Counted from the stretch's first letter, positions 1 to 15,520 are shown. The stretch is 64,000 bases of DNA from an uncultured Ignavibacteria bacterium (GCA_964537215.1 CAZIBI010000002.1:64001-128000); one strand, 5' to 3'. Notes: generated by a model from the letters alone, not told the origin. Numbers and translations are program-made.

Positions 1-6
1 CGCAGG

Positions 7-1008
7 TTGTATGAGCACCTATCCGGAGGAGCAACGTTCCACGCTCGCGACACTATTACCCAATTTCAAATCTCAGTGCACTTTCGAAATTGGCTTGATG
101 GAACTCCCGAGGCAGTGAGAGAACTGGAAGCTACAGACGTAGTACTTGGAGATCTTCATAAGTGGCAGGATAGACTGAATATCTCTGTGGATCTGGGTGT
201 TAGTGAAGGAGAGGTAGAAGAACTCCGAGAAACACGAGACCGAATGTATGCTGAAATGAAAGCGATTTTCGAGCGCTGGAGAGACGAGAAAGGGTACACG
301 TTTAAAGATCGGGTACTAGAGGAGGCAACCTCCTTTGGCAGGGCAACGTTTCAGAACTACATCCAATATTTGAAGCGATTTCGTGAAATCCATGCGGGCG
401 TACGCGAGCTTGGTCCCGAAGATGTGTTTCCACCGAGTTCGCAAATGTTGATTTCTTCAATGTTGGAGGAGATGAGGGGGCGAGAGATGACAATAGAAGT
501 GCAAATGCAGAAGCTCAGCGAATATTTTGCGGCTGAAAGTATCCTCGAAATCCCGTTCATCAGAATTTCTTCAATCTTGTATGCATCGATTGCACGCAAG
601 AGTGCTGCAGGGCAAATACGTCCACCGAGCCGAGGTGCATTTACCGACATAAATGCAATCGCAAGCATCTTGCCGTATGTCGACGCTATGTTCGTAGACG
701 ATGAAAATGCTGCTTACCTGAACGAGCGACCGGCATCAGAAATGCTTGGGTACCAGACAAAGATCTTCTCAAATAACACGCGAGAAGAGTTCTTGGCTTA
801 TCTCGAGAAAATCGAAAGGGATGCAGATCCAAAGCAACTTGAACTAGTCCGCGAGATTTATGGAGAATGCGAACCGTATCTAAGTATTTTAGTGGATGAC
901 CGTGCCAAACGAGAGAGTGAACCACCAAAGAAATTGCGACCTTCGATCGAACAAAGCTTAAAGGAGGTAAAACAGCGTCTGCAAAGAGGTGGCGACCAGA
1001 CTCCTTGA
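7..1008 (+). CDS. Hypothetical protein, 5'-partial. The reading frame is open to the window start and the first listed codon is TTG. No recognisable domain.
   Basis: Long ORF of 333 aa with coding-like composition. It lies immediately upstream of direct repeat A and the RloC-like ATPase gene. No motif recognised by eye. Confidence 0.55.
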   Translation: MYEHLSGGATFHARDTITQFQISVHFRNWLDGTPEAVRELEATDVVLGDLHKWQDRLNISVDLGVSEGEVEELRETRDRMYAEMKAIFERWRDEKGYTFKDRVLEEATSFGRATFQNYIQYLKRFREIHAGVRELGPEDVFPPSSQMLISSMLEEMRGREMTIEVQMQKLSEYFAAESILEIPFIRISSILYASIARKSAAGQIRPPSRGAFTDINAIASILPYVDAMFVDDENAAYLNERPASEMLGYQTKIFSNNTREEFLAYLEKIERDADPKQLELVREIYGECEPYLSILVDDRAKRESEPPKKLRPSIEQSLKEVKQRLQRGGDQTP

Positions 1009-1039
1009 AATTTTTCACGCTTGCAATTGGGGTACTCAA

Positions 1040-1250
1040 GTTATCCACAGTTTGTGAGGAATATCGCTACTAATCGACAATTGATCGTTCAACTGGACGT
1101 GGCTATGCTGCATTTACCGCTCAATCAGTTATCCGCGATAATGCGACACTCTCCAGCGTCTGTTTGAACGTGGGTCGACCGGGGTTCAAGAGGTAAAAGG
1201 TTCGAACATCCTTCACCAGGGTGAACCAATGAGTTCCCAAGTATATGTTT
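1040..1250. repeat. Direct repeat A. An imperfect (~85% identical) copy of the 3' end plus downstream region of the serine recombinase gene; partner of repeat B at 3767-3957.
   Basis: Both start gttatccacag..gtgaggaatatcgctac..tcgacaattgatc and both end ...gtttgaacgtgggtcgaccggggtt.a..aggtaaaa.gttcgaacatccttcaccagggtgaacca. Similarity stops sharply after ggtgaacca in both copies. Confidence 0.85.
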
Positions 1251-1260
1251 TTCCTCATTA
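1121..1260 (-). pseudogene. Truncated remnant (C-terminal ~40 codons) of a serine recombinase gene inside repeat A.
   Basis: The minus-strand ORF fragment encodes ...WFTLVKDVRTFYLLNPGRPTFKQTLESVALSRITD. This is near-identical to the C-terminus of the intact 553-aa recombinase (…WFTLVKDVRTFYLLNPGRPTFKQTLEGVALSRLTD). There is no upstream catalytic domain. Confidence 0.6.
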
Positions 1261-1431
1261 CCTGTGGACAACGTATATCCGACGAAATCGGCGATTTTGG
1301 CACGACTTGACATTGACTTTTATGGTGTTTAGTAGCAAGTTGAACATAAGATCGTCAAAGGGAATCGTCTAATGAGCAAATTGACCAAATGCAAGACTCC
1401 ACTTTTCTAATAGGATTGGGCCTACGCACTA

Positions 1432-3729
1432 ATGATTAGAAGGATCAAGAAGATTCGGAATTTGGGATTGGTGTTCTCGAATTACTCTGAGAAAGCTACA
1501 CTCCCAGCCTTCAAGAGATTTAATCTCATTTTCGGATGGAATGGATGTGGGAAGACAACTCTGTCTCGACTCTTCGGTTCGATAAGTGGGGTAGAAAGTT
1601 CGGGCGTGGAGTACCAGCTTGAGGACGATGGCGGTGTTGTTCATAAACATGGCGACCCGTTCCCAACAAAGATTCGTGTATTCAATCAAGATTTCATTCG
1701 TGAAAATCTAAGCTTGATCGAGAGTCGAGCAAAAACGATTTCTCTGATTCTCGGGAAGGAGAATCAGAGCCTATTGAAGCAAATCGAGAAGGACAGGCTG
1801 CTGCTTGAAGGTGACCCCACGAATGGCACGCAAGGCAAATTGTCATTGTTTGCAGCCAGTGAAAAAGAGGTCACACAAGCCGAAAGTGCACGAGCAAATA
1901 CATTCACCGAAGTCGCAAGAACAGTGGGCGCTGCGATCGGTGGTAATGCACTTCGAGATTACAGACGGCCGCAGGCGGAAAGTGATTTCAATGGCATGCC
2001 TGCCAAGGCCGAGCTAACCGCAGTAGAACTGGAAAAGCAATTATTATCAGTCAAACAGCTCTCACTGTCCGAGATTGCAACTCTCTCACTTCCTAAAGTG
2101 TCCTTGTCCGATAAACAAGTCCAACATGAATTGTCTAATTTAGCAGGATTGATCAGTTCAAAGTCCAAAGAACTCCAAAGTCGAACCGTAGATTCTGAGA
2201 TTGTCGAGCGTCTTACTTCGAATCCTGATATTTCGGAGTGGGTCGAAGCCGGGCTGATTTTGCACCAGAAGCACTCGTCAAATAAGTGCGAGTACTGCAT
2301 GCAGCAAGTACCAATAAAGCGATCTGAGGAACTTGCACGCCACTTTAATGAAGCGGACAGACGGTTGAAGGAAGAAGTACGGGAGTCAATATCCGACTTG
2401 ACCAGTTTGCGAGAAGTAGTTGGCTCACTACGAATTCCGGATAAAGCGCGATTCTATACTGCACTTCAGGTTGATTTCCAAGCGAAGGCCAGTGCTTTTG
2501 AACGAGAGAAGACAGCGGCAGTCCGAAGTATTGATTCTTGCACTGAAGAACTAGTTGAAAAACTGAAAAAGACAACTGAATCAGTGATTGCTAAAGAGAA
2601 ACTAGACCTTGAGTCCCTTACAACTACTATTGGTCAGATTAATCTGTCAATTGATGCTCACAATAAGATTACAAACGATTTTGATAGCGTAAGAAATGAA
2701 GCCATCAAGAAATTGAAACAACATTATCTAAGTACAATCTATGATGGTGTAAGACAGCTGGATGGCGAGATCGCGACCAAATCAACATCAAGGGATCAAC
2801 TCAAGGCAGAGATTGATACGTTGAAAGCGAGTATTACTGACAATTTGGCAAAAATGTCATCAACTCAAAAAGCATGTGAAGAAATCAATCAGCGCCTTCG
2901 GACATTCCTTGGACACAGCGAATTGAGTTTTGTCCCACATAACGAGCAACGGACGAAGGACGACGGAACGATGGAAGAAGTAACATCGGGATACGATATT
3001 ATGCGAGGGAACGATCCGGCCACACTGTTGAGCGAAGGCGAAAAGACAGCCGTGGCATTTGCCTATTTTGTCGTCCAGCTCGCTGATCAGGAATTTGATG
3101 TCAGCGAAGGGATCATCGTAATAGATGACCCAATCTCAAGTCTAGATTCAAATTCGTTGTACCAAGCTTTTAGTTTCTTGAAGAACGCGGTCAAGGAGAG
3201 CAAGCAGGTCTTCATACTCACGCACAACTTTGAATTTCTGAAGTTGTTAATTAACTGGCTAAAGGGCGCAAGGGCCGATGCTGGTTACTATATGATAAAG
3301 AATCGCTACCAGGATGGGGTACGAAGTGCATATATCGATGCGATGGATAAAGAACTCTTCGACTATGAATCTGAATATCACTACTTGTTCAAGCTCCTAA
3401 AGCAGCTCAGTCTCGATCAAGACGGCACGCTTGCCAAAGCATATCCAGTTCCGAATATTGCAAGAAAAGTCTGGGAGACATTCTTAATGTTCAGGGTTCC
3501 TAATAGTAAGTCCCAATACATGAAAATGGATGAGTTGAAAAAGGCGGGACTCGATGCAGTTAAGTTGGATTCGATATATAAGTTCACCAATGACCAGTCC
3601 CACATCACTGGATCCGGTTTGAACCCGGCATTGGTTCCACAAGCAACAAAAGTGATCAATGAGATGTTTGAGATGATGGCGGCGGGCGCCCCAGATCATT
3701 TTCGGATTCTTGATGATGCTACGAATTAG
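1432..3729 (+). CDS. AAA_13-family ABC-type ATPase with a coiled-coil insert and CxxC zinc hook. RloC/PrrC-like putative tRNA anticodon nuclease or abortive-infection ATPase.
   Basis: The N-terminus NLGLVFSNYSEK...FKRFNLIFGWNGCGKTTLSRLF carries the Walker A motif. IRVFNQDF is the Q-loop region. A long coiled coil contains HSSNKCEYCMQQV (CxxC). The ABC signature is LSEGEKTAVAFAYF, Walker B is IIVIDDPISSLD and the H-loop is FILTHNFEF. The C-terminal domain has ARKVWE (R-x3-E) followed 42 residues later by NDQSH. Confidence 0.8.
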   Translation: MIRRIKKIRNLGLVFSNYSEKATLPAFKRFNLIFGWNGCGKTTLSRLFGSISGVESSGVEYQLEDDGGVVHKHGDPFPTKIRVFNQDFIRENLSLIESRAKTISLILGKENQSLLKQIEKDRLLLEGDPTNGTQGKLSLFAASEKEVTQAESARANTFTEVARTVGAAIGGNALRDYRRPQAESDFNGMPAKAELTAVELEKQLLSVKQLSLSEIATLSLPKVSLSDKQVQHELSNLAGLISSKSKELQSRTVDSEIVERLTSNPDISEWVEAGLILHQKHSSNKCEYCMQQVPIKRSEELARHFNEADRRLKEEVRESISDLTSLREVVGSLRIPDKARFYTALQVDFQAKASAFEREKTAAVRSIDSCTEELVEKLKKTTESVIAKEKLDLESLTTTIGQINLSIDAHNKITNDFDSVRNEAIKKLKQHYLSTIYDGVRQLDGEIATKSTSRDQLKAEIDTLKASITDNLAKMSSTQKACEEINQRLRTFLGHSELSFVPHNEQRTKDDGTMEEVTSGYDIMRGNDPATLLSEGEKTAVAFAYFVVQLADQEFDVSEGIIVIDDPISSLDSNSLYQAFSFLKNAVKESKQVFILTHNFEFLKLLINWLKGARADAGYYMIKNRYQDGVRSAYIDAMDKELFDYESEYHYLFKLLKQLSLDQDGTLAKAYPVPNIARKVWETFLMFRVPNSKSQYMKMDELKKAGLDAVKLDSIYKFTNDQSHITGSGLNPALVPQATKVINEMFEMMAAGAPDHFRILDDATN

Positions 3730-3766
3730 TCTTCAGAGTTACTTTCACCAGAGGGTAAATTAGAGT

Positions 3767-3957
3767 GGTTATCCACAGGTAGTGAGGAATATCGCTACTT
3801 TTCGACAATTGATCATTTAGATAGACGAGCTACGATGACTTCACCGCTCAATCTGTCAGTCGCGATAATGCAACACCTTCAAGTGTTTGTTTGAACGTGG
3901 GTCGACCGGGGTTTAGCAGGTAAAAAGTTCGAACATCCTTCACCAGGGTGAACCAGC
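3767..3957. repeat. Direct repeat B. It overlaps the last ~110 bp of the serine recombinase coding sequence plus ~80 bp downstream of its stop codon.
   Basis: Alignable to 1040-1250 over ~195 bp at ~85% identity. Confidence 0.85.
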
Positions 3958-5509
3958 TCGAAATTCCAGCCCGGACAGGGGTAGCAACTGCTTTAGGCAA
4001 AGCACGAATCAGTGGTTCGAACTGCAGCTTTTGCACCGCATGAGAGAGAAGCGCGTTCTGGATCAACTTGAACGGTTTTTCCGGCTGAATACTGAGGATA
4101 CCGTCCTTTAGGGAAAGTTTCGAACCGCAGTGCCGGAGTATTGCTCGCTTCTGTTCCAGCGATCCCTGATCAAACTGCTCTTGCGCTCTGGAAGCAAATT
4201 CGAACGCGTCTTCACACGAACGGAAGACGTGGTCAAAACGACTGTCATTGTCTTCAAGCAATTCTTTCAATCGCACCCGCTCCGATTCCAGTTCGTTCTT
4301 TTTCGCCAGATATTCGTCATCACTTAGGATGTTTCGCAATCGCAAGCCGAGCAGTTCGGTGATTTCGAATTGGGAGGCCTCATACCGATGGTGAAGCGCT
4401 TTCAATGCCTTGCTGCCCTTTTCACTTTCCTCATCGTGGAGCTCGCGAAGAACCTCAAGCGTCCAGTCTCGGAGTTTTTTGCTGATGGTTAAGGAGCGCA
4501 GGAAGCTGGAAATTTGCTTTTCAAGCGCGGCACGTTCAATAACTTTTTGAGAGCAGCGGACATTGCGCTTTCGTCGGGTGCAGTGGTAATAGACATACTT
4601 ATATCCATACCGTCGATTCTTCTTGTGCTCAGCCGTGATTGCTGCACCGCACTCGCCGCAGGTAATAAGACCGGTAAAAGCGAACGTGTACTCTTGTGGT
4701 CGAGGCCGGCTGGCCAGCCCGAGGATCTCCTGAACGCGATCAAATTCGGCCTTTGTAATCATTGGCTTCTGCGACCCCGGAAAGAGCTCCTTGTTATATC
4801 GAATCGCTCCGTAGTAAAACGGGTTCGTCAGAATACTGTAGATGGTAGAGTAATGCACGGGTCCGCCGCCGTAACGCGAAAACTGTCGCGTTCGCAGCCC
4901 CAGCTGATTTGTTGCGACTTCCAGCACACCCATTGGGGTATACGTTCCTGTGAGCATGAGATCCCACATCTTGCGAACCAGCAGAAATCGTTCTGGATCA
5001 GGAATGACCGTTCGGGAATTGCGGTCATTCAAATATCCCAAGGGCGGCAAACCAGGCATCCAGCCCGATGCGATCTTGGCGCGAAGTCCGCGCTTCACAT
5101 TGTCTGATAGATCGTCCACATATTTTTTTGCCATCCCAAATTCGAGCTGCATCCAGAACTTATCGTTACCCGTGTTAAGGAAACTTCGTTGCGCCGTATG
5201 GATCGCTTTGAGATGCCCTTCTTCCATTGCCCAGATAAGCGCACCGCCATCGACAGGGTTTCGCGCCAGCCGGTCAAGCTTCCAACAAATGATGCCGTCA
5301 AGATCACCCTTTTGCACTTTACCGATCAGTTGCGTGAACACCGGCCGACCCGGAGCTTTAGCAGATTTCGATTCCGTAAAAACCGCATCAACCGCAAGAC
5401 CCTCCCTCCCGGCGTATTCTTGCAATTCACGAACTTGTGAATCAATCGACAGAACCTGTCTGTCCTCTGATTCACTCGACTTACGTGCGTAGATCGCGAT
5501 TTTCGGCAT
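3848..5509 (-). CDS. Large serine recombinase (resolvase/invertase-type catalytic domain, recombinase domain, zinc ribbon).
   Basis: The N-terminus is MPKIAIYARKSSESEDRQVLSIDSQ with the catalytic Ser. The motif ...WKLDRLARN follows. The central recombinase domain and the C-terminal Cys cluster CGECGAAI...YYHCTRRKR are present. Length is 553 aa. Confidence 0.9.
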   Translation of the reverse strand: MPKIAIYARKSSESEDRQVLSIDSQVRELQEYAGREGLAVDAVFTESKSAKAPGRPVFTQLIGKVQKGDLDGIICWKLDRLARNPVDGGALIWAMEEGHLKAIHTAQRSFLNTGNDKFWMQLEFGMAKKYVDDLSDNVKRGLRAKIASGWMPGLPPLGYLNDRNSRTVIPDPERFLLVRKMWDLMLTGTYTPMGVLEVATNQLGLRTRQFSRYGGGPVHYSTIYSILTNPFYYGAIRYNKELFPGSQKPMITKAEFDRVQEILGLASRPRPQEYTFAFTGLITCGECGAAITAEHKKNRRYGYKYVYYHCTRRKRNVRCSQKVIERAALEKQISSFLRSLTISKKLRDWTLEVLRELHDEESEKGSKALKALHHRYEASQFEITELLGLRLRNILSDDEYLAKKNELESERVRLKELLEDNDSRFDHVFRSCEDAFEFASRAQEQFDQGSLEQKRAILRHCGSKLSLKDGILSIQPEKPFKLIQNALLSHAVQKLQFEPLIRALPKAVATPVRAGISSWFTLVKDVRTFYLLNPGRPTFKQTLEGVALSRLTD

Positions 5510-5769
5510 GGGAGATTATGGTAAGTAGTCTAACTGTACCAAGCCGGCAGCCGAAGACACAACTTCTAAGATGTTCGAACCTTTTTGTCGTCGTCAGGGG
5601 ACTTGTGGAGTAATAGTCGGAACAGATTTGTGAGCCGCAAAGCCATCGCCCACGCCTCTTTGTCGTTCAATTCACAGTGAAACTCTTGCCTATAGATGCA
5701 TTTGAGCTGATCGATATGGTGTTGCTGAAGTGGCATAGTCAGCACAGTATGGAGGATTGAACACCGGTG

Positions 5770-5975
5770 AAAAGTGAGGAATATCACCTAAAAGGAACTT
5801 CGGGGTGTGGATAACCCGAATTGGGTACTATTTCCGAAGATACCGCAAGCTTGTTGGTCCTCTCATTTGAATTGCCAGCGTTCGGTTACTCTTCGGCGGC
5901 GAAACCGGAAATGCATTTTTGCGAACAATTCCTCACTGATGTCCACAGGAGCAAGTTCTTTTCGACAATTGAAGG
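5770..5975. promoter_or_regulatory. Cluster of short motifs shared with repeats A and B, lying in the region between the recombinase start codon and the HTH gene. Candidate recombinase binding or recombination subsites.
   Basis: agtgaggaatatc at ~5773-5785. tgtggataacc (inverted copy of ggttatccaca) at ~5806-5816. attcctcac (inverted gtgaggaat) at ~5929. tccacagg plus cttttcgacaattga at ~5942-5974. The same tccacag..ttttcgacaattga arrangement occurs at 1043-1084 and 3771-3813. Confidence 0.4.
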
Positions 5976-6018
5976 GGTTTTGTCATGGGATTACGCTAAT
6001 TTTGCACTCTTAAAACCC

Positions 6019-6297
6019 ATGCTACGTCCCATAAACAACCGCGTTCCGAACAGTATCCGATATTACCGGCGTCGTGCCAATATGCGGCTCTTTGAGTTGG
6101 CACACTACGTCGGAATTTCGAGTCCGGCAAACCTGGCGAATTGGGAAATGGGCAGGAAGATGCCATCAGCCGACAATCTACTGAAACTCTCCGCGGTGCT
6201 CATGGTGCCGCCGGAAATTCTCTTTCTCGGTCGCCTGAAACAACTCCGTGAACAAATCAAAGCTCGCAAAGATCAACCAATAAAGAAACCACTATGA
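6019..6297 (+). CDS. XRE-family helix-turn-helix DNA-binding protein.
   Basis: IRYYRRRANMRLFELAHYVGISSPANLANWEMGRKMPSADNLLKLSAVLMV fits the XRE HTH pattern. The stop codon overlaps the start of the next ORF (ctATGAgc). Confidence 0.6.
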   Translation: MLRPINNRVPNSIRYYRRRANMRLFELAHYVGISSPANLANWEMGRKMPSADNLLKLSAVLMVPPEILFLGRLKQLREQIKARKDQPIKKPL

Positions 6298-6551
6298 GCA
6301 CGAATCTCCCGATTCCATTCGTTCCGAAAAGTGCTGCAGATGCCCTGGCGCTCCAGATCGCGCAGTCGTTCGATGACGAAGAGCGATTGCCTATTTATCG
6401 GCGTGCGTGTGCCACTCATAATCAGAGTGTGGTGTATCGAGCTTATCGTGAGGCTCTACAGGTGCCGGCAGAGAAGGTGCGGAAATCGCGACGAGCCATT
6501 TTCTTCTTCATCCTGCACACCTATGAAGACGAAAATAGTGCTCGGCATTGA
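6294..6551 (+). CDS. Small hypothetical protein (85 aa), translationally coupled to the HTH and RuvC-like genes.
   Basis: ORF overlaps both neighbours (ATGA overlap upstream, ~29-bp overlap downstream). No recognisable motif. Confidence 0.4.
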   Translation: MSTNLPIPFVPKSAADALALQIAQSFDDEERLPIYRRACATHNQSVVYRAYREALQVPAEKVRKSRRAIFFFILHTYEDENSARH

Positions 6552-7047
6552 CTATGGTACGCGTGAATTTGGCTACGCCACTTTCCACGATGGCCGACTG
6601 CAGGATTGGAATGTCAAGTCGTTGCGCCGGACATTACCTCGACGAGATCGACTCATTGTCCTCCGACACGCATTCACAAGATTATTAATTGATACCCAGC
6701 CAGGGGTGATGGCAATGACAAGACACGAAACTGCCCACAACGACAAGCTGCAGATTATGCCAAAAGTCGACAGGATTATGAAATCCATCGCTGCCGAGCG
6801 CAGCATAGCAATTCATCAGTTTGACCCGGTGACTGTCAAGAAAGCTGTTACCGGCGACTCCAAAGCGACGAAGCGTATGGAAGCCAAGGGGGTTGTCGCA
6901 CTCTTTCCGGAAGTCCGGCTGTATCTCAACGAGGCAGGCTGGCAAGAGCGCTACTTGCAGAGAATGTTCGGGGCGATTGCTGCCGGATCCACCTATTTCG
7001 CTCTCTTCGAGAACCCGCCAGACCATGAGCAACCTAACCAACAGTAA
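6523..7047 (+). CDS. RuvC-like (RNase H-fold) Holliday-junction resolvase family protein.
   Basis: KIVLGIDYGTREFGYATFHDGRLQ resembles the RuvC N-terminus ILGIDPGSRVTGYGV. LIDTQPGVMAMTRHE resembles the FQPDYFAIEQVF segment carrying the catalytic Glu. AVTGDSKATKRMEAKGVVALF resembles [20 protein letters not shown]. The C-terminal acidic pair is not clearly conserved. Confidence 0.5.
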   Translation: MKTKIVLGIDYGTREFGYATFHDGRLQDWNVKSLRRTLPRRDRLIVLRHAFTRLLIDTQPGVMAMTRHETAHNDKLQIMPKVDRIMKSIAAERSIAIHQFDPVTVKKAVTGDSKATKRMEAKGVVALFPEVRLYLNEAGWQERYLQRMFGAIAAGSTYFALFENPPDHEQPNQQ

Positions 7048-8023
7048 GCGGACGCGGACAACACGGCGGCCGGTTGCAATTACGATTCGCGATCGGGCAA
7101 TGCTACTTGCACTAATTGAATTTCGCGTGCTTTCGACAGAGCAGATTCGTTGGTTGTTCTTTCCTTCAATCCATCGCACGCGGAAACGACTGTACTTGCT
7201 GTGGCGCCACGGTTTCCTTCGACGAGCTACTCGCCCGACCCGAATTGGGGAAGGGTCGGCGCAATTCCTGTACGCGCTTTCGGCCAAAGGGCGGCGACTC
7301 GTTGGCGACCAGAGCCTGCGACTCCGGCCGCAGTTGACCGATCCAAAGAAATTCAGTGAACATAGCCAGCTTATCAACAACCTCCATATTTGTCTGTTGC
7401 TCGTCGAACGTGCCGCCGATGACTTTTCCGTCCGGCGGTGGGAGCAAGGCGCAAAGCTCAAAATGTTCGTCACGGCGATATCTGCGGCCATTTCAACGAC
7501 ATTGCCGATTATTCCAGATGCAATGTTTATCCTAACCTGCAGAGGCCGGGATTATTGTTTTTTCGCGGAAGTTGATCGCGGTCAAACCGACCTCAATCGA
7601 ATCGCAAGCAAATGCACCGGCTATTCATCGTTGTGGCGGCAGAAGTTACCACAACGTCAATTTGGCGTCCGGTCGTTTCGTGTACTTTACCTGACAACTG
7701 GCGGAAAGCGGCTTGTCCATATCCTCGAAAAGATCCGGGTGCAACTACGAAACTCTTCTTGCCCGGACTTGATCGCCGGTGTGAGCGGTAATGCCGTTTC
7801 GCTCCAAGAACCTGAAAGGCTCTTTTCGATGGCATGGCGGACAGTTGCCCTTTCAGGAGACATTGTTTCGAGCTGTCCGCTGCCAAGCCCTTCCTTTGTC
7901 CGCTCCCGCCAGCGCCTTGAACACCACTTGTGCGCTGACCAGAATCCTGATGCTAGCTGTAAGGAGACTCCGGGCTCGGTGGATGAGGGCAGCCCTCGTC
8001 TGCCGGGTAGCGGGAGCGGATAG
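7025..8023 (+). CDS. Replication-relaxation (Replic_Relax, PF13814-like) family protein, paralog 1.
   Basis: RDRAMLLALIEFRVLSTEQIRWLFFPSIHRTRKRLYLLWRHGFLRR is a typical winged-helix N-terminus of this family. The start overlaps the RuvC-like gene end. Chosen start is M45 of the listed ORF. Confidence 0.6.
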   Translation: MSNLTNSKRTRTTRRPVAITIRDRAMLLALIEFRVLSTEQIRWLFFPSIHRTRKRLYLLWRHGFLRRATRPTRIGEGSAQFLYALSAKGRRLVGDQSLRLRPQLTDPKKFSEHSQLINNLHICLLLVERAADDFSVRRWEQGAKLKMFVTAISAAISTTLPIIPDAMFILTCRGRDYCFFAEVDRGQTDLNRIASKCTGYSSLWRQKLPQRQFGVRSFRVLYLTTGGKRLVHILEKIRVQLRNSSCPDLIAGVSGNAVSLQEPERLFSMAWRTVALSGDIVSSCPLPSPSFVRSRQRLEHHLCADQNPDASCKETPGSVDEGSPRLPGSGSG

Positions 8024-8261
8024 GTGAAGATCGGATGGAAGTCTGTTTTTGTTTGTGGTGCCGTCGGCAACAAGTGCTATTCGACGGCCTGAATGCGCGC
8101 GTTCGTCGGTCGGCTGCGCTTCACGCCATGCTTCCGGTGGGGTCGTGGTTGGCAGGGAGTGCAAACCACGACGAAAAAGTAGCCGGGAAATAATCTCTAT
8201 TTCCCTTCTACTTTTTTCGGGGTGTAACCCCTTGTCCCACCTCCAGCATGTCGTTCGCTTT

Positions 8262-8510
8262 GCCTCCCGACTCCACCATTTTTCCCGAGTCCTTTCTTCC
8301 TGCGCTTGGCGTCATTATATTGTGGGTGCGCCAAGCGCTGGAGCTTGGAAAGGACTCGGCTTTGCCGGTCGGCTCGGAAGCCGACATCGCCGCCGCTTAG
8401 CTTTTTGGTGGGTGCGGCGGCTCGGCGTCGGTCGGCGGCCATCCAACGGAGTTGGTCGTTTTAGCGGAGCCGTTGTCTGGCCTTGACGAAAAATGGTGGA
8501 GTCGGGAGGC
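8262..8510. repeat. Nested inverted repeats (large imperfect palindrome/cruciform) in a GC-rich intergenic region.
   Basis: Outer perfect 23-bp inverted repeat: gcctcccgactccaccatttttc (~8262-8284) and gaaaaatggtggagtcgggaggc (~8488-8510). Inner 12-bp inverted repeat: ccgagtcctttc (~8285-8296) and gaaaggactcgg (~8348-8359). Innermost 10-bp inverted repeat: gcgcttggcg (~8302-8311) and cgccaagcgc (~8329-8338), with the AT-rich loop tcattatattgtgggtg. Two further hairpins lie inside: gtcggct-cgga-agccgac (~8368-8388) and gccgccgc...gcggcggc (~8390-8430). Confidence 0.8.
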
Positions 8511-8622
8511 ATCGCGTGGCTATCACCCCGCCGTTGCGGCGAGGTTCCCGCGCCCCCTGCTCGTTGCCGACCCGGGGCGCGGAGCCACGCGGCCTCCGAC
8601 GAACGCGCGCAGAGAAAGACAG

Positions 8623-9771
8623 ATGAGGGAAGAGGACAGTTTGAAAGACCTACCGCTAAAGAGAAAACTGAAGGCATTCCGACCGAACGGACGCGATCGT
8701 TCGATCCTGCAGTATGTCGCCGACTATCGGTTCATGAGCATTGAGTTGCTCGCGGCGTTGATCGTTGCGCCGCCGGTACCGGGACGCACGTATGGATTCA
8801 GCGAATCGGCGCTCCGGGCACGATGTCAAAAGCTTCGAGATAATGACTTTCTTAACTGGCAATTTTTGCATGACTTGCCTACAGGTCGGGGTTTGCATAC
8901 CGAGCGACCAGCGGTGTACTCCATTGGTCCGGCGGCGCTCGATCTCTTAGAAGAAGAATTCGGCTTCAGCCGCGAGCAACTCAAGCAGTCGCTCGAGAAG
9001 AACAAACTGAGCTCAATGTTTCTCCGCCATTTCCTGATGATCAGCAAGTTCCATGTTTGCTTGGAACTGGCGTGCCGTCAAACCGCCAACGGCGGTATTG
9101 ATGCCGGCGTCGCCGGAGATCTCTCCGGTATGACGGTTGAAATTGGCACTTGGCTACAGGACGGACTGGTTGACCGCGTTCGTGTTACAGTCGGCGACGT
9201 AGTCGAGACGATACCGGTGGTGCCGGATGCTGTTTTCAATCTGGTCATTCGCAAATCAGACGGCTCGGTTACGGTGAAACATTTTGCGCTCGAGGCGGAC
9301 AGGGGGACGATGCCGATGCGGAGCATTACGAAGAAAGCAACTGGCTATTGGCAGTACATCCGGCGGGGATTGCAAAAACGCCGATATACATACTATGGAG
9401 AACATGGCGCGGGACCGGAATTGCGGGTTGTCAATCCGAACTTGAAATGGGATGCGATTCCAAAGGGCGAGCAAGAGAACATTCTGCGATACGGGATCGA
9501 TGATCTAACAGTCTTATTTGTCACCCGTGGGGAATCGCCTGACGTGAAGTCCCTGAAGGAGAAGTCCCAGCTCACACGCAAGCGCCAGAGCAGTATCCTT
9601 GAGGCGGTAAGACGGGTAGAAGGTATCGATCCATCTTCCGACACGTTCGTCTTTTGTACTGAAGGATTGGATTTCGATGTAAAAAGCGCGGCAGCGTTAT
9701 TCGAATCGATTTGGCAATCGTGTCGTGAAGAGCCCCTCAGATCGAAGTTGATACCAACCCGTGCGGAGTGA
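8623..9771 (+). CDS. Replication-relaxation (Replic_Relax-like) family protein, paralog 2.
   Basis: RDRSILQYVADYRFMSIELLAALIV...FLNWQFLH parallels the N-terminus of paralog 1. The listed ORF starts at 8452 inside the palindrome, so the internal Met (MREEDSLKDL) is chosen as start. Confidence 0.55.
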   Translation: MREEDSLKDLPLKRKLKAFRPNGRDRSILQYVADYRFMSIELLAALIVAPPVPGRTYGFSESALRARCQKLRDNDFLNWQFLHDLPTGRGLHTERPAVYSIGPAALDLLEEEFGFSREQLKQSLEKNKLSSMFLRHFLMISKFHVCLELACRQTANGGIDAGVAGDLSGMTVEIGTWLQDGLVDRVRVTVGDVVETIPVVPDAVFNLVIRKSDGSVTVKHFALEADRGTMPMRSITKKATGYWQYIRRGLQKRRYTYYGEHGAGPELRVVNPNLKWDAIPKGEQENILRYGIDDLTVLFVTRGESPDVKSLKEKSQLTRKRQSSILEAVRRVEGIDPSSDTFVFCTEGLDFDVKSAAALFESIWQSCREEPLRSKLIPTRAE

Positions 9772-9858
9772 TCTCAAGTCATCCAAACCCGGTCGCAAAT
9801 TTTTGTGAAAACAATCACGTGAATCCTAAAAAAAATTGACAACATTTGTCGATTCTTC

Positions 9859-9887
9859 TTGCTTTTCTTGGAAACTGGGATTATCAT
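9859..9887 (+). promoter_or_regulatory. Candidate sigma70-like promoter (ttgctt -35, 17 nt spacer, tatcat -10).
   Basis: Sequence inspection only. It lies in a 0.75 kb ORF-free region. A second candidate (ttgaca at 10082-10087, taatta -10) follows the terminator. Confidence 0.25.
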
Positions 9888-9894
9888 CGCATAC

Positions 9895-10072
9895 GTGGTA
9901 ACCGGCACTAGCTCAGAGCTCAAATCGGCGCGTTCGTTGCGCCCCGAGGAGGGTTGATCTGGTGTTCAGAGGAGATTAACCACAAACAGAGGAGGAATTA
10001 CGATCCTCTCTAGCGCTTTTCGCTCATTATTACTTTGATTGGTCGCGGCCGGGAAACTGGCCGCTTTTTTTA
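9895..10072 (+). ncRNA. Candidate small transcript (~180 nt) running from the promoter-like element to an intrinsic terminator. Function unknown.
   Basis: No ORF is listed in 9772-10519. The terminator at 10045-10072 is clear. Internal complementarity exists (gaggagg...cctctc). Confidence 0.2.
10045..10072 (+). terminator. Rho-independent terminator.
   Basis: gcggccgg-gaaa-ctggccgc stem followed by ttttttt. Confidence 0.65.
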
Positions 10073-10223
10073 TGAAATGTCTTGACAAGACCGTCAATCC
10101 AACGCTAATTAAAGCAACCAATCAAAGTAATCTCGTGGATTTCCCACACATCCTTTAAGTATGTCCAATTGTTACGCGCGGTTTTCATGCTTTCCGTGTG
10201 CGGTTTTGAAGAAAACCATCCAT

Positions 10224-10274
10224 AAAAAAGCACCCCGACTAGAGAATGCTTTGCACACAAGGCTCCAGTCGGGG
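10224..10274 (-). terminator. Possible minus-strand intrinsic terminator.
   Basis: The hairpin ccccgact ...(27 nt)... agtcgggg is followed by a T-run on the minus strand (the plus strand has aaaaaag upstream). The large loop makes this uncertain. Confidence 0.3.
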
Positions 10275-10655
10275 CTCACAGCAGAACGCTGCTTAATCGG
10301 TTAAGATAGCTGTTTTATTTTTCATGTCCACATGAATTTTAGAACAGGCTGTTTTTGCCGTCAAGCCTGCCGATCTGCGCTTCGTCCACCAAATAGGGCG
10401 AGGCATTCCTCAGTGACACAGCATCCATAGGAGTCAGCAATGCTTCGCTGCAATATGGATATCTATATCGAGGCCGCAATTCCGCTAATCGAAGCTGCAA
10501 TTGTGGTGGTGCCGTCGGATTGGACTGCTTTAGGTCCAGCGAAGGTCGCGTTCTGTTGCTTGTTGACGATCTACATCTTGTCTCGCCGCCGTCAACAGTA
10601 GCAGTTGTCCATCGATTTCTGAATTTGAAACGGATAATTTTGGAGGAAATAACAA

Positions 10656-10876
10656 TGTCTCACAGAGACGACTATGATGACGGATTTGATGACGGTATCG
10701 CTGCCGCCATCATTGGGGGCCTGGCTATTTATGGGGCGTTTAAGATTGTCGAAAAACTCAGGGAAACCCCTGAGCAGCGGCTGCTGAACAACCTTGGTCG
10801 TGATCTCAAGCAGCTTGATTCCGGAGTGTATGACGGGTATGACGACGATGAGGAGGACGAGGATGAGGCCGAGTAA
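10656..10876 (+). CDS. Small acidic membrane protein (73 aa).
   Basis: A good RBS (ttggaggaaataacaATG) is present. It has one hydrophobic helix, AAAIIGGLAIYGAFKIV, and an acidic tail, DDDEEDEDEAE. Confidence 0.4.
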
Positions 10877-11315
10877 GGTTCTCCGTATCGCTCACGAAGT
10901 TTTGGCTATCCGTCGGAAGATCGTTACTTCCCATATTGAGAATCGAAACCGCGTGGCTCTGCAACGATCCGAGATGGAAGTCCAGCTTAACAAGCAAAGA
11001 CTTGAATCCGCCCAATATCGGTTTGGTGTTATCGAACTACTTGCAAAGGTCAAGCAGATGACGCCACCGGCGCCAATCGATCCGGTGGAAGAAATCCAGC
11101 AGCGCGAACGCCGTGTCATGGCGGATTTGTCCGCCAAGGCGAACATTCGCGCCGCCGCCGAGAAGGCACTTCGTGATCAGGCTGCTCAAGCCGCATTTGA
11201 CCGCGCCGACTTCATCGCTCAGGTGAAGCGTGACTTGCCAGAGGAATCTTGGGCGGAGATCATCGACGACTATGACCGCCGCGTGTATGAAAGCACACAA
11301 GAGGAGACGTCGTGA
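10863..11315 (+). CDS. Coiled-coil hypothetical protein (~150 aa).
   Basis: ORF overlaps the previous stop. The sequence is heptad-like and charged. No domain recognised. Confidence 0.35.
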   Translation: MRPSKVLRIAHEVLAIRRKIVTSHIENRNRVALQRSEMEVQLNKQRLESAQYRFGVIELLAKVKQMTPPAPIDPVEEIQQRERRVMADLSAKANIRAAAEKALRDQAAQAAFDRADFIAQVKRDLPEESWAEIIDDYDRRVYESTQEETS

Positions 11316-11650
11316 CGCCGTTTTGTATTGGCGTGGATCGCAACACAGGACGCAGCGTAACGCTGCGTCCAGATGTTCTCTTCGCGCACGGCTTGATAGC
11401 GGGCGGAACAGGCATGGGGAAGAGCCAGCTTGCAAACGCTCTCTGCCGCCATTGTCTGCACGCGGGCATTCCGTTTGTCTATCTTGATCCTCATGGCGAC
11501 ACCTACCACGACCTTGTTGCCTATGCCACTGCCCGTCGGGTCCAGAACCGCCTTGTGACGATTGACGCCAATCTGGCGGCGGATACGTTTGTATTTCCAC
11601 TAAATTTCTGCTGCCGAATGGCTTGGATTCGGCAACGCAGGGAGCGATGA
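11312..11650 (+). CDS. N-terminal fragment (Walker A part) of an FtsK/HerA/TraD-like P-loop ATPase (type IV coupling-protein-like). It is split from the next ORF by an apparent frameshift.
   Basis: GGTGMGKSQLANAL carries the Walker A motif, followed by FVYLDPHGD. The frame ends at 11650 while the next frame opens at ~11604. Confidence 0.5.
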   Translation: MTPFCIGVDRNTGRSVTLRPDVLFAHGLIAGGTGMGKSQLANALCRHCLHAGIPFVYLDPHGDTYHDLVAYATARRVQNRLVTIDANLAADTFVFPLNFCCRMAWIRQRRER

Positions 11651-13092: not shown

Positions 13093-13277
13093 AACGGGAA
13101 CGCGAATTTTTGAGTAAACGGGAAGTCGCTGAGATGTTGAATTTGAGCATCTTTACAATCGATTCTTGGGTTTCGCAACGGCGCGAAATACCATTTATCA
13201 AGATGGGAAGGAACGTCAGGTTTGACATTCGAGATGTCCGAGCCTGGCTAGAGAAGCGGAAGTTCAACCCCGAGTAA
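13089..13277 (+). CDS. Excisionase/AlpA-like helix-turn-helix protein (Xis-like).
   Basis: LSKREVAEMLNLSIFTIDSWVSQRREIPFIKMGRNVRFDIRDVRAWL fits the MerR/Xis-type HTH pattern. A strong RBS (aggagg) is present and the gene sits immediately upstream of the integrase. Confidence 0.65.
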   Translation: MKREREFLSKREVAEMLNLSIFTIDSWVSQRREIPFIKMGRNVRFDIRDVRAWLEKRKFNPE

Positions 13278-13349
13278 TGCGTTTTGGACGACGCCGGTCG
13301 GAATATCATTGCTGACCGGCGTTTTTTTGTGCTTATTGGCAAGAATTGG

Positions 13350-14465: not shown

Positions 14466-14497
14466 CACACGTACCGGTTCGATTCCGGTCTCCGGCA
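14412..14497 (+). tRNA. tRNA-Leu (anticodon UAA), type II with a long variable arm. No encoded CCA.
   Basis: Manual fold: acceptor GCCGGAG/CTCCGGC. D-arm GCG-AAATTGGTAGA-CGC. Anticodon arm AGGGA-CTTAAAA-TCCCT. Variable arm GTGTG-gtga-CACAC. T-arm ACCGG-TTCGATT-CCGGT. Discriminator A. Confidence 0.9.
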
Positions 14498-14537
14498 TAT
14501 TGTAAATGGGACAAATCTAGATTGCTGAATTGGGAGA

Positions 14538-15239: not shown

Positions 15240-15520
15240 AATCTCTATGCTTCCATTCCGTATCAGGTGTACCCGTTCCGCTTTCGGGCGAATCCATTCG
15301 CAAGTAGGAATCGGGATTCCGGTGGTTATGATAATAATTCGGCAGAAACTGTCAAAACATAATAACTACCGAAGCGCGGCAAACATTTGTTTCAGTTTCG
15401 TTGTTGCCGGGTACCATTCGACCGATATATTAACGAATCAAATGACCAAACTCGCAATAGTATCATCAGGAACAGTTTTAGTGGTCGGCAACAGTACAAA
15501 CGCGGACTTTGTGGAGTAAT

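Follow-up and report, generated by a model that had tools for sequence, protein, structure and literature searches.

How did a gene coding for an RloC-like ATPase come to lie between two copies of the 3' end of a recombinase gene? The locus belongs to a stretch of 64,000 nucleotides from an uncultured Ignavibacteria bacterium, called the window here, to which all coordinates refer. We propose that the ATPase gene is probably a recombinase-less module docked by site-specific recombination at a site, X, located in the 3' end of the gene of the adjacent large serine recombinase (LSR).

Two direct repeats define the arrangement. They are located at 1040-1228 (copy A) and 3768-3955 (copy B), both on the minus strand, share 84.1% identity over 189 nt (blastn, E 3e-32) and differ in length by one 1-nt indel. 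MAFFT alignment and a repeat search (families D1 and D2) recovered the same copies, in agreement with the preliminary description, which had reported long imperfect direct repeats bracketing the ATPase gene and had proposed to align them and to map their breakpoints. The similarity breaks off abruptly, as had been noted, after ...GGTGAACCA, at 1228 in copy A and 3955 in copy B; the end of copy A had been placed at 1250, which is 22 nt too far. Copy B was correctly recognized as the real end of the recombinase gene and comprises the final 108 nt of its coding sequence with 80 nt of 3' sequence. This downstream region includes a conserved non-coding block, b2 (3768-3812, minus strand), whose counterpart in copy A occupies 1040-1084 (minus strand). 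The initial 22 nt of the repeat (GTTATCCACAGGTAGTGAGGAA) are found again, inverted and matching at 20 of 22 positions, at 1251-1272 (minus strand; inverted pair I3), 22 nt past the end of copy A, where they contain a DnaA-box-like TTGTCCACA. The 22-mer has three matches within the window against zero expected, and its copies at 1251-1272 and 3768-3789 form inverted repeats on either side of the ATPase gene. A mis-assembly of the metagenome-assembled genome is unlikely because SRR14271334, assembled independently in Logan (L001/L003, corresponding to window positions 945-6707), has the identical arrangement.

Copy A had been considered a dead remnant. It does contain recombinase C-terminal sequence, but its reading frame (1121-1228, minus strand) is preserved: 35 codons are translated as WFTLVKDVRTFYLLNPGRPTFKQTLESVALSRITD followed by a stop, and 33 of the 35 residues are the same as those of the live end. 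The coding parts of copies B and A are separated by 14 nucleotide differences, which affect 10 codons synonymously and two non-synonymously. Such a synonymous-biased divergence argues against an in-place duplicate left decaying, and points instead to a sequence that evolved as the working end of a different element and was then imported. Judging from its sequence, copy A is not decaying, since both the putative attachment site and the C-terminal frame are intact. The displaced tails that were translated all retain frame and stop (nine of nine).

Exactly between the two recombinase ends, as first described, lies a single gene (1432..3729, plus strand) encoding a protein of 765 aa. It is the sole long ORF of the 1229-3767 interval; the remaining ones do not exceed 113 aa and, except for three in 1229-1431, fall on other frames inside it. 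The protein matches the AAA_13 family over its full length (PF13166, E 1.5e-122, residues 20-746) and the PADLOC model of the candidate defence system PDC-S06 (PDLC04894, E 3.8e-223, residues 1-763, profile positions 1-737 of 740). The alignment to the PADLOC model for PrrC is limited to residues 525-660, corresponding to the ATPase part, and no NCBIfam model attains its cut-off. Homologues about 50-59% identical are named 'wobble nucleotide-excising tRNase' or 'ACNase RloC' in their source records. Like RloC and PrrC, the protein is AAA_13 throughout, has a CxxC motif (CEYC) in a long helical insert and shows in its C-terminal region an R-x3-E ... H pattern, visible in the translation, that we take to resemble their anticodon-nuclease motif; it differs from them in that its best curated match is the PDC-S06 candidate system and not PrrC. 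The name 'RloC-like' given at the outset is a fair label on the basis of these similarities, the nuclease activity being putative.

The neighboring recombinase (3848..5509, minus strand, 553 aa) possesses in order the resolvase catalytic (Resolvase, PF00239, E 4.6e-21), recombinase (Recombinase, PF07508, E 1.3e-08) and zinc-ribbon (Zn_ribbon_recom, PF13408, E 3e-12) domains of a large serine recombinase, all above cut-off, and its nearest solved structures are A118 integrase and SPbeta SprA (YokA), with E values of about 1e-8 to 1e-9. NCBIfam scores amount to 113 bits for XisF (cut-off 375), 79.7 for CcrB (900), 51 for CcrC (900) and 49 for CcrA (700). CcrB (NF047343, E 1.8e-22) is among the top-scoring named families, yet far under its cut-off, and the assignment of the LSR as a Ccr recombinase was rejected since it fails the Ccr equivalog cut-offs. 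Just 5' of the gene, a conserved small ORF of 73 aa is found in the same orientation (5566..5787, minus strand). About 70 nt 5' of the LSR start, the sequence GATGTTCGAACCTTTT (5570..5585, plus strand) is a 16-nt exact inverted copy of the X core; kept at this place in 13 loci beside a TTGaCc hexamer, it constitutes a candidate operator. The conserved core of the host element (5821..14498, plus strand) encodes an XRE-type HTH protein, an 85-aa protein, a RuvC-like protein, two Replic_Relax proteins, DUF87/TraG-like proteins and a tyrosine integrase (13284-14465). The latter adjoins a tRNA-Leu(taa) gene (14411-14498), the sole tRNA of the window, on the other side of the element. This counts against our preferred reading, as the element as a whole may have an integrase other than the LSR.

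The repeats share a common layout: a complete X, then the stretch encoding the final 26 LSR residues, then the conserved non-coding block. X is an imperfect palindrome of about 50 bp centered on GTTC|GAAC that follows the pattern T-GGTTCA-N14-GTTC|GAAC-N11-TGAACC-CC and represents a candidate att site. The window has two complete X sites on the same strand and in direct orientation. The distal one (1179..1228, minus strand) has its TTCGAA at 1201-1206 and its left edge at a TGG codon (1226-1228). The proximal one (3906..3955, minus strand; TTCGAA at 3928-3933) is inside the live LSR gene, where it falls in the last 36 codons and codes for W-F-T-L-V-K-D-V-R-T-F-Y-L-L-N-P. Two more family-conserved TTCGAA cores occur within the gene (4016..4124, minus strand), at 4016-4021 in the codons of F-E-P and at 4119-4124 in those of G-S-K, which is G-S-N in relatives. 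Across phyla, GGTTCGAAC is retained in three different reading frames, at about -70, +1382, +1485 and +1573 of the gene. The codons for G-S-N read GGTTCGAAC in 20 of 28 cases (2.6% expected), those for V-R-T read GTTCGAAC in 18 of 31 (4.7% expected) and those for F-E-P read TTCGAA in all 15 (32% expected). That the palindrome is kept in three frames suggests a site bound by a protein.

Searching relatives for the same recombinase, as the preliminary description had suggested, recovered the bracketed-tail architecture at 10 or more related loci in other phyla, without uncovering an empty site for the window module. Direct repeats of the 3' end of the LSR gene lie 0.2-7 kb further downstream in L002/L004 (three copies), L007, L011, L035, L036, L037, L041, L062, L063 and L065, the recombinases of these loci being 40-92% identical to that of the window. 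The source groups of the loci include Ignavibacteria, Zixibacteria, Eisenbacteria, Patescibacteria and Gemmatimonadota, along with further groups that are mostly uncultured. Whereas the length of the repeat varies from 36 nt (L007) to 456 nt (L002), its start recurs at a Trp codon that belongs to a conserved C-terminal motif and is 25 nt away from the GTTCGAAC palindrome; in sites of canonical form, it begins at TGG, 25 +/- 2 nt off the palindrome center. The recurrence of this edge disfavors random deletion or duplication. In addition, the metagenome contigs L063 and L065 provide a natural breakpoint. Over 4315 nt, which take in the LSR, an AbiE cassette and the initial 29 nt of the distal tail, their identity is 99.93%; right after ...GATGTTCGAAC, at the palindrome, they part completely.

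The cargo located between tail copies in these loci is nearly always a defence system: PDC-S06 in the window, CBASS and AbiE in L002, PDC-S31 in L035, a DitA-like gene in L037 and type III CBASS in L041, with AbiEii-like and AbiEi/Eii-like ORFs, judged by eye only, in L062 and L063. Among the pairs with intervening ORFs listed, L041 alone has a recombinase between its tails. In eight of 10 further loci, the first large ORF 3' of the LSR matches a defence model, and most relatives, approximately 35 loci with enough downstream sequence to be assessed, have defence cargo, yet no second tail within 10 kb, which speaks against our reading. No close homologue of the window ATPase was found in another tail-flanked context, which bears on the question of which tail came with the cargo.

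More distant relatives reveal a link to tRNA genes. In at least 14 of them, the LSR frame overlaps an antisense tRNA gene by 13-148 nt, with the T-loop of the tRNA at the place corresponding to X. A 20-nt direct repeat of the 3' end of tRNA-Ser bounds a 10.4-kb element in L044, and a 16-nt repeat of a tRNA 3' end likewise bounds the element of L051. In L064, which shares the identical 29-nt core and terminates at tRNA-Gln, the LSR tail and the intact antisense tRNA gene are separated by a cassette with a single gene. In these three loci, X shares its distal 6-10 nt with the local tRNA, offset exactly 5 bp further out; from this comparison, X may tentatively be regarded as an attP-type partner of the local tRNA attB. 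No tRNA was found after copy A up to the end of the window.

Taken together, these observations suggest a route by which the module could have entered. X, within the final ~110 nt of the LSR coding sequence, would be the recombination site of the enzyme, and the module would have arrived there in the form of a small circle or, alternatively, of a complete related element whose recombinase was subsequently lost, although the order of these events can only be conjectured. The mobile unit would extend over 2727 bp from the X center of copy A to that of copy B (1204..3930). Besides the ATPase gene, it would contain the remainder of a tail, a b2 block, the inverted 22-mer and X's left half. By tandem accretion, it would bring a replacement C-terminus for the LSR: as the module would have carried its own tail, the LSR frame would be rebuilt from the resident body and the incoming tail, and the former tail, copy A, would end up beyond the module. 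Conversely, recombination between the two X sites, which are direct repeats, would release the module in circular form and reunite the LSR with copy A, its gene remaining intact. The predicted circle junction is ...GGGAACTCATTGGTTCACCCTGGTGAAGGATGTTC|GAACTTTTTACCTGCTAAACC... and the predicted empty site consists of the LSR body followed by copy A. Neither an excised circle nor an empty site or alternative junction of the window module was found, the sole other assembly being in the occupied state, and the module is presumed to be still mobile. The LSR is presumably the cognate enzyme because it is invariably linked to the site in more than 25 loci, and the crossover would take place within TTCGAA. 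Classical serine integrases pair attP with attB, not two alike sites, so recombination between two X sites would need a Ccr-like or resolvase-like behavior. The idea of tandem insertion or cassette capture put forward in the preliminary description thus gains comparative support in its core, leaving aside the dead copy and the supposed novelty of the arrangement.

Other explanations have to be weighed against this scenario. The exchange point could be placed at the other edge of the repeat (b2, ...CTGTGGATAAC|, at 1040 and 3768), in which case the mobile unit would be the cargo with the following tail, and the tail copy merely a long recombination site comparable to the integron attC. This edge is as sharp as the Trp-codon edge in five of five copies (window and L002), the b2 block is conserved though non-coding, and the palindrome and tail at the far end of the cassette are reminiscent of a composite attC-like site. 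We nevertheless hold this placement unlikely: the b2 block is limited to the subfamily of the window, L002, L062 and L064 and missing from the tails of L063/L065, L011 and L041; the sole natural breakpoint seen is at the palindrome and not at the outer edge of the tail; L007 repeats just 36 nt around the palindrome; and the synonymous-biased divergence of the tails fits sequences serving in turn as working C-terminus. It is similarly improbable that the locus lacks any dedicated site or mobility and arose through RecA-dependent recombination, or through tandem integration of two complete elements and untargeted deletion. The second recombinase gene between the tails of L041 does resemble an intermediate of tandem integration followed by decay, and tails of 190-456 nt with 84-94% identity could sustain homologous exchange. 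However, untargeted deletion would yield neither the Trp-codon edge in 10 of the 10 pairs examined nor repeats of 36-53 nt (L007, L035), the switch between L063 and L065 occurs inside an identity block of 29 nt, short for RecA, and the DNA conservation of the palindrome in three frames argues for a bound protein.

Tyrosine integrases classically target the T-loop of tRNA genes and leave identity blocks of about 20 nt. The tRNA 3'-end repeats of L044 (20 nt) and L051 (16 nt) have this signature, tyrosine recombinase genes are located 0.7-1.2 kb 5' of the LSR in about 12 loci, and the window element finishes at the tRNA-Leu adjoining its own tyrosine integrase. The sites could then be served by that enzyme (13284-14465), or by the small tyrosine recombinase located next to the LSR in many relatives, the LSR gene being just adjacent to the target. 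We give this little credence: tblastn with the window proteins, including the tyrosine integrase, returned no match in L044, L051, L021 and L027, where the LSR frame nonetheless enters the site, and the site is always at the 3' end of the LSR gene, never next to a tyrosine recombinase gene. Moreover, Dehalococcoides islands have the same 20-bp repeat although their recombinases are all of the serine type (PMC3146451). As for the 22-nt inverted repeats (1251-1272/3768-3789), they are 91% complementary and bracket the ATPase gene exactly, as if it were an invertible switch driven by the LSR; copy A (1040-1272) is itself bracketed by the 22-mer in inverted orientation, like a 233-bp element with terminal inverted repeats that would derive from the recombinase module, and L064 has a similar inverted box (GTTATCCACAAG) 52 nt ahead of its terminal tRNA. 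Either interpretation is very improbable. The long inverted repeat occurs in no other array, and no inverted variant of the locus was found. A short conserved palindrome, AAGTGGACA-N4-TGTCCAGT, abuts the Trp-codon edge of the distal tails at this position in L002, L011, L062 and L063 and is absent from the window copy, an absence that also counts against our preferred reading. The same boxes are present between the HTH and LSR genes too, suggesting sites for a regulator or DnaA and not recombination ends.

The docking of a module in the LSR gene is not without analogues, and the arrangement, contrary to what was first thought, recalls Dehalococcoides ssrA islands, SCCmec composites and cis-mobilizable elements. 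The ssrA islands insert midway through the T-loop and form tandem arrays split by direct repeats (McMurdie et al. 2011; PMC3146451); the gene of their CcrB-like serine recombinase, DsiB, always overlaps the att site by its 3' end and continues in frame into the adjoining sequence, and some islands without integration module were read as cis-mobilizable (PMC3146451). By analogy, there is precedent in these islands for every element of our model (PMC3146451), and in the 14 tRNA relatives the LSR frame likewise extends across the candidate att site into the tRNA gene. The differences concern the target, which is tmRNA with a 20-bp ssrA fragment in Dehalococcoides and the recombinase's own C-terminal coding repeat of 36-456 nt in the window subfamily, the functional replacement tail that the modules of this subfamily alone would supply, and the cargo, reductive dehalogenases in one case and defence genes in the other. 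The companion genes (DsiA, RecF-like and ParB-like as opposed to HTH, RuvC-like and Replic_Relax) are different as well. SCCmec composite islands also carry defence systems (PMC11470126) and combine large serine recombinases, insertion at the 3' end of a conserved gene, direct repeats between cassettes and recombinase-less cassettes mobilized in trans. Their target is however rlmH, as compared with the recombinase gene in the window subfamily and a tRNA gene in its relatives, and they use CcrAB or CcrC, whereas the window locus has one recombinase gene only.

Cis-mobilizable elements arise by accretion (PMC5704250). Those of the ICESt1/ICESt3 type (PMC5704250) are flanked by direct att sites, contain no integrase or transfer genes and lie beside an element with the matching recombinase; the window module similarly has two direct att-like sites, no recombinase or transfer gene inside and an adjacent recombinase gene. 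The classical cases depend on tyrosine integrases acting at a host gene's 3' end (fda), in contrast to the window, where a serine recombinase has its own end repeated. In Myxococcus phage Mx8, intP is reportedly changed to intX on recombination, with an altered C-terminal end. SSV-type archaeal integrases are described as having the recombination site within the integrase coding sequence (PMC7253208). Mx8 and SSV thus resemble the window locus in that the site is inside the integrase gene and recombination alters the enzyme C-terminus, but both encode tyrosine recombinases, and SSV integration splits and inactivates the gene while the incoming DNA would restore a full tail in the window. Integrons share a fixed recombinase gene with its docking site, a promoter-poor cassette array and a structured repeat per cassette, and the cargo of sedentary integrons includes defence genes as well. 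IntI is nonetheless of the tyrosine type and acts on folded single-stranded attC, attI is 5' of intI and not in its 3' coding end, and the cassettes of integrons, smaller in size, share one orientation behind the Pc promoter, unlike the window module. The assignment of the locus as an integron was rejected in view of its serine-type recombinase with a site in the 3' coding end.

A broader and more tentative possibility is that this LSR family forms an integron-like platform of different chemistry, with a docking site in its own C-terminal codons and swappable defence modules that bring replacement C-termini; since the modules supply a working C-terminus, the LSR gene would survive each insertion and excision. 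If true, this would represent a widespread route for packaging and swapping defence systems as small modules bounded by the recombinase's own site. A recombinase tail with a GTTCGAAC core could serve as a signature for defence cargo in metagenomes, and the sites predicted here would provide natural att sites for a large uncharacterized LSR clade, relevant as genome-engineering tools. The T-loop-like GGTTCGAAC palindrome, present in three frames and in the promoter, may correspond to candidate recombinase binding sites that shape the most conserved C-terminal residues, a case where DNA-binding-site constraint, rather than protein function, may explain their conservation. Past copy A, an ORF of 333 aa (7..1008, plus strand) that has no hits in Pfam, PADLOC and NCBIfam may be the cargo of the next module of the array.

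The sole gene between two direct copies of the 3' end of a large serine recombinase (LSR) gene encodes an AAA_13 ATPase of 765 aa (1432..3729, forward strand; E 1.5e-122) with a full-length match (E 3.8e-223) to PDC-S06, a candidate defence system in PADLOC; source records call its homologues 'wobble nucleotide-excising tRNase' or 'ACNase RloC'. The LSR gene itself occupies 3848..5509 on the reverse strand and specifies a protein of 553 aa carrying Resolvase, Recombinase and Zn_ribbon_recom domains; it falls below the NCBIfam cut-offs for Ccr and XisF and is neither of these by that measure. A repeat search resolved the duplication into two adjoining families (1040-1099/3768-3827 and 1102-1228/3829-3955) of 85% identity each. 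The two copies, A and B, align continuously with MAFFT and share 84.1% identity over 189 nt by blastn (E 3e-32), which bears out the repeat as given in the preliminary description and excludes a chance or low-complexity similarity. The similarity starts at 1040 and 3768 with GTTATCCACAG and ends at 1228 and 3955 after GGTGAACCA. Copy B consists of the last 108 nt of the LSR gene and 80 nt downstream; copy A, when translated, still encodes the C-terminal 35 residues and the stop codon. The 22 nt that begin the repeat are also present in inverted orientation at 1251-1272, and the ATPase gene is thus additionally enclosed by 22-nt inverted repeats. An assembly artefact is unlikely since an independent Logan contig of the locus has the same structure. 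The G+C content of 43-47% at positions 1-4000, against about 50-55% in the remainder of the window, fits foreign cargo modules.

Copy A had been regarded as a dead remnant. Its differences from copy B argue otherwise: 14 nt differ over 35 codons, with 10 codons changed synonymously and 2 non-synonymously, and both frame and stop are intact. Frame and stop are likewise kept in 9/9 displaced tails translated (the window copy, copies 2 and 3 of the closest relative L002, and the distal tails of L011, L041, L062, L063 and L065). A displaced tail can moreover be nearer to the live tail of another genome, as for copy 2 of L002, which differs from the live tail of L062 by 10 synonymous and 3 non-synonymous changes. 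The synonymous bias and the intact frames indicate that the two window tails diverged as working C-termini in different elements, and recombination would have united them afterwards. Duplication in place followed by decay is excluded by the same counts. The integrase of Mx8, a tyrosine recombinase, carries attP within its own reading frame. Tyrosine recombinases of the SSV family are also known to do so (PMC7253208). Gene splitting of that type by integration of a whole element would require a tail upstream of the core genes, and the 64 kb hold no third tail.

Comparison with other loci delimits the element common to the repeat pairs. The repeated segments range in length from 36 nt (L007) to 456 nt (L002), so that the common element amounts to a site of about 36-50 bp, termed X. 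On the LSR sense strand, the repeated segments with a canonical site begin at a TGG codon, that of Trp-519 in the window LSR, within the motif W-x-x-[LV]-x-D-V-R-T-[FW], and this codon precedes the centre of the GTTC/GAAC palindrome (the slash marking the centre) by 25 +/- 2 nt; the core of L037 is a variant, ATACGCAC. In the window, X (1179-1228 distal, 3906-3955 proximal) forms an imperfect palindrome, T-GGTTCA-N14-GTTC/GAAC-N11-TGAACC-CC. Its reverse complement terminates in CCA yet, inspected by hand, exceeds the length of a tRNA 3' end by 5 nt, and a search of the repeats for a hidden tRNA or other known RNA with ARAGORN and Rfam gave only the tRNA-Leu at 14411-14498. On the cassette side of the TGG edge, a small palindrome AAGTGGACA-N4-TGTCCAGT or a variant of it is conserved in L002 (both downstream copies), L011, L062 and L063; the window copy is without it and has the inverted 22-mer in its place. 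TGGACA-N3-6-TGTCCA was rejected as a general feature of complete elements; the loci first compared had it only at the displaced-tail junctions of L002 and L011 and at two unrelated sites; variants adjoin the displaced tails of the later-found L062 and L063. Contigs L063 and L065, from two related samples, are 99.93% identical over 4315 nt, from the LSR with its tail through an AbiE-like cassette and the small palindrome into the distal tail, of which the initial 29 nt are included. Alignment is lost directly after ...GATGTTCGAAC and resumes, at 90% identity, some 430-600 nt further on, which is what an exchange at the palindrome would leave.

The arrangement recurs widely. L002, an Ignavibacteria MAG whose LSR is 92% identical to that of the window, shares the entire window element: the small ORF, an HTH protein, an 85-aa protein, a RuvC-like protein, two Replic_Relax proteins, DUF87/TraG-like proteins, the tyrosine integrase and tRNA-Leu. 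It contains three LSR tails (11549-12003, 15352-15806 and 19386-19596) separating two cassettes. A scan for LSR relatives with one genome per species yielded 58 loci, and the LSR 3' end is directly repeated downstream in seven (L004, L007, L011, L035, L036, L037 and L041); a metagenome scan by core pattern yielded five loci, three of which (L062, L063 and L065) carry two copies about 3 kb apart. The LSRs of the repeat-bearing loci share 40-92% identity with the window protein; their sources are Ignavibacteria, Gemmatimonadaceae, Eiseniibacteriota and unclassified MAGs. The wider family, with roughly 5,800 members, is also found in Zixibacteria and Patescibacteria. The core pattern had no match among the viral contigs of IMG/VR. 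Three homologue look-ups for the same ATPase cassette in another tail-flanked context, which would have told which tail accompanies the cargo, found none in four contigs (L067-L070). One of these, the 34-kb contig L067 (Logan SRR13588871), has an LSR relative and, after it, about 18 kb of defence island, with no second tail; the island contains a CBASS-like SMODS/SLATT set, a PIF1 helicase with a PDDEXK protein, Fic, Kiwa (KwaAB) and an RloC-like AAA_13 protein fused to a type I restriction-modification operon.

Defence systems are found in the stretches between tails. Besides PDC-S06 in the window, these are a CBASS cyclase with a 4TM effector and a LexA-like S24 peptidase (L002 cassette 1), AbiEi/AbiEii (L002 cassette 2), PDC-S31 (L035), DitA-like DUF5677 (L037), a type III CBASS with cyclase, HORMA, TRIP13 and SAVED nuclease together with a second, tail-less LSR (L041), and AbiEii-like or AbiEi-Eii-like ORFs whose N-termini were judged by eye (L062 and L063). 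Ten further loci have no second tail, and in 8 of them a defence model is matched by the large ORF that comes first downstream of the LSR: HerA, LmuB-like, GajB (twice), OLD/AriA-like, type IV restriction-like, helicase and PDC-M36A. Among the tail pairs with intervening ORFs listed, L041 alone has a recombinase in the inserted segment. This second LSR (11945-13405) is 41% identical to the first and stops a few codons short of the conserved Trp position; about 200 nt beyond it lies a displaced tail 94% identical to that of the first recombinase.

The nature of X is illuminated by more distant relatives. In at least 16 of them (35-50% identity, many from Patescibacteria), the LSR gene ends at an antisense tRNA gene (Gln, Lys, Tyr, Leu, Asp, Ser or Glu), which the reading frame enters by 13-148 nt in 14 cases. 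In L021 and L027, the two inspected closely, the tRNA CCA end read in antisense supplies the Trp codon, and the T-loop (TTCGAA/T) lies at the position equivalent to X. A 10.4-kb element in L044 is delimited by a 20-nt direct repeat of the tRNA-Ser 3' end, from CCA to T-loop, and the element of L051 likewise by a 16-nt repeat. In L064, whose 29-nt core is that of the window, a single cargo gene separates the LSR tail from an intact antisense tRNA-Gln, which host ftsEX follows. Taken together, these relatives argue that the att site of the family is located at the 3' end of the recombinase gene, with T-loops as its putative natural targets. The distal 6-10 nt of the left half of X recur in the local tRNA 3' end in L044, L051 and L064; the X half is the longer of the two, by exactly 5 nt. 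This offset resembles the attP-versus-attB half-site geometry of serine integrases that Rutherford et al. reportedly described in 2013; the resemblance is suggestive only and is not reconciled with the intact tRNA junctions of these loci. Some 190-215 nt inside the left end of the tRNA-Ser-bounded elements, L044 (1167-1400) and L051 (170-400) have a hairpin and, beyond it, a canonical tail that is intact and unattached, W-R-R-V-V-D-D-V-R-T-Y-W, whose left-half distal bases match the local tRNA-Ser 3' end with 5 nt of extra spacing; both elements contain attP-like and attB-like sites, all intact.

The palindrome is constrained as DNA. TTCGAA, mostly inside GGTTCGAAC(C), occupies four conserved positions in the family: one about 70 nt before the start codon, adjoining a TTGaCc hexamer (13 loci), and three inside the LSR gene at about +1382, +1485 and +1573, the last of which is X. 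In the window these three lie at 4119-4124, 4016-4021 and 3928-3933. Each in-gene site falls in a different reading frame, specifying G-S-N, F-E-P and V-R-T in turn, the most conserved residues within the C-terminal 100 aa. Relative to what these amino acids and the codon usage of the genes would predict, the palindromic codons are strongly over-represented: G-S-N is written GGTTCGAAC in 20/28 cases (expected 2.6%), V-R-T is written GTTCGAAC in 18/31 (4.7%) and F-E-P is written TTCGAA in 15/15 (32%). From this usage we infer putative protein-binding sites. The upstream site of the window (5570-5585), a 16-nt exact inverted copy of the X core, is likely an operator. Two extra TTCGAA in the window LSR gene (4199-4204 and 4364-4369) are common to L002 only, and the gene has five in its 1662 nt against about 0.4 expected.

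We propose that X is the recombination site of the LSR and that the ATPase gene would be the cargo of an att-flanked, recombinase-less module spanning approximately 1204-3930. The module could have arrived directly, as a circle bearing X, or a complete related element could have inserted at X and lost its recombinase and core genes afterwards; L041 looks like an intermediate of the latter route. Either insertion would join the resident LSR body in frame to a new functional tail, because the remainder of the tail directly follows X in the incoming DNA, and would move the old tail to the far side of the module. Recombination between the two X sites would reverse the process and leave the LSR gene undamaged. 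The predicted circle junction, from the 1204 side to the 3930 side, reads ...GGGAACTCATTGGTTCACCCTGGTGAAGGATGTTC joined to GAACTTTTTACCTGCTAAACCCC..., and the predicted empty site, from LSR body to copy A tail, ...TTTCGAGCTGGTTCACCCTGGTGAAGGATGTTC joined to GAACCTTTTACCTCTTGAACCCC.... Enzyme identity, exact crossover and present-day activity are steps that we infer. Beyond the displaced tail come its own b2 block, the conserved non-coding segment after each tail, and a further unannotated ORF (7..1008). The array probably continues past the left end of the window, where the model predicts additional tail-bounded modules and, at the end, a tRNA gene in antisense, probably tRNA-Gln as in L064.

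The arrangement may be classed with serine-recombinase tandem accretion at sites of T-loop type, and some of its features are unusual. The preliminary reading of tandem insertion or cassette capture was thus right in substance but erred, besides the supposed death of copy A, in finding no described precedent. The closest described system is that of the Dehalococcoides ssrA genomic islands, which form tandem arrays and some of which lack an integration module and were read as cis-mobilizable (PMC3146451); the arrangement proposed here shares both traits. The best-studied parallel is provided by SCCmec composite islands, with defences in tandem cassettes (PMC11470126), and the concept of accretion and cis-mobilizable elements has been reviewed (PMC5704250). 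Unlike in these systems, the repeated unit is the LSR's own conserved coding tail, so that each module brings a selectable replacement; the T-loop-like palindromes are dual-coded in three frames, the LSR family is phylogenetically very broad and the cargo consists almost exclusively of defence genes.

The b2 block has three motifs in common with the HTH-LSR intergenic region in the window, L002 and L062: GTTATCCACAG, which includes a perfect DnaA box TTATCCACA, AGTGAGGAA and TTTTCGACAATTGA. The HTH regulator of the element or DnaA may be what binds them. DnaA-box-like motifs lie at 1040-1050, 1262-1272, 3768-3778, 5805-5815 and 5938-5948, with TTATCCACA perfect at 1041 and 3769 and inverted at about 5806; they are accompanied by the short motifs AGTGAGGAAT and CTTTTCGACAATTGA, and further motif positions are 5773-5785 and 5958-5972. 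The HTH and recombinase genes are divergent, and the upstream motifs are kept in L002 and L062. Together these could be operators of an XRE-type regulator or part of an origin.

Directly upstream of the LSR gene, a 73-aa ORF (5566-5787, reverse strand) kept in many loci gave no family match; its final codons, K-V-R-T-S, overlie the upstream GTTCGAAC palindrome, and it could encode a directionality factor or a regulator. A tyrosine integrase gene in the 13284-14498 region terminates at the tRNA-Leu(taa) 5' end, both being on one strand. An island of this integrase with its far end in the window was rejected, as no direct repeat of the tRNA-Leu 3' end occurs elsewhere in the window; homology with L002 ceases exactly at this tRNA 3' end. 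In L027, a 94-nt inverted repeat of 100% identity (1431-1524 and 3588-3681) joins the tail of one recombinase gene to the upstream region of a second, which ends in antisense tRNA-Lys; either an invertible segment or an artefact of assembly may account for it. In L063, two recombinase genes (1629-3911 and 4101-6385; 80-82% DNA identity) lie head to head with their tails outward.
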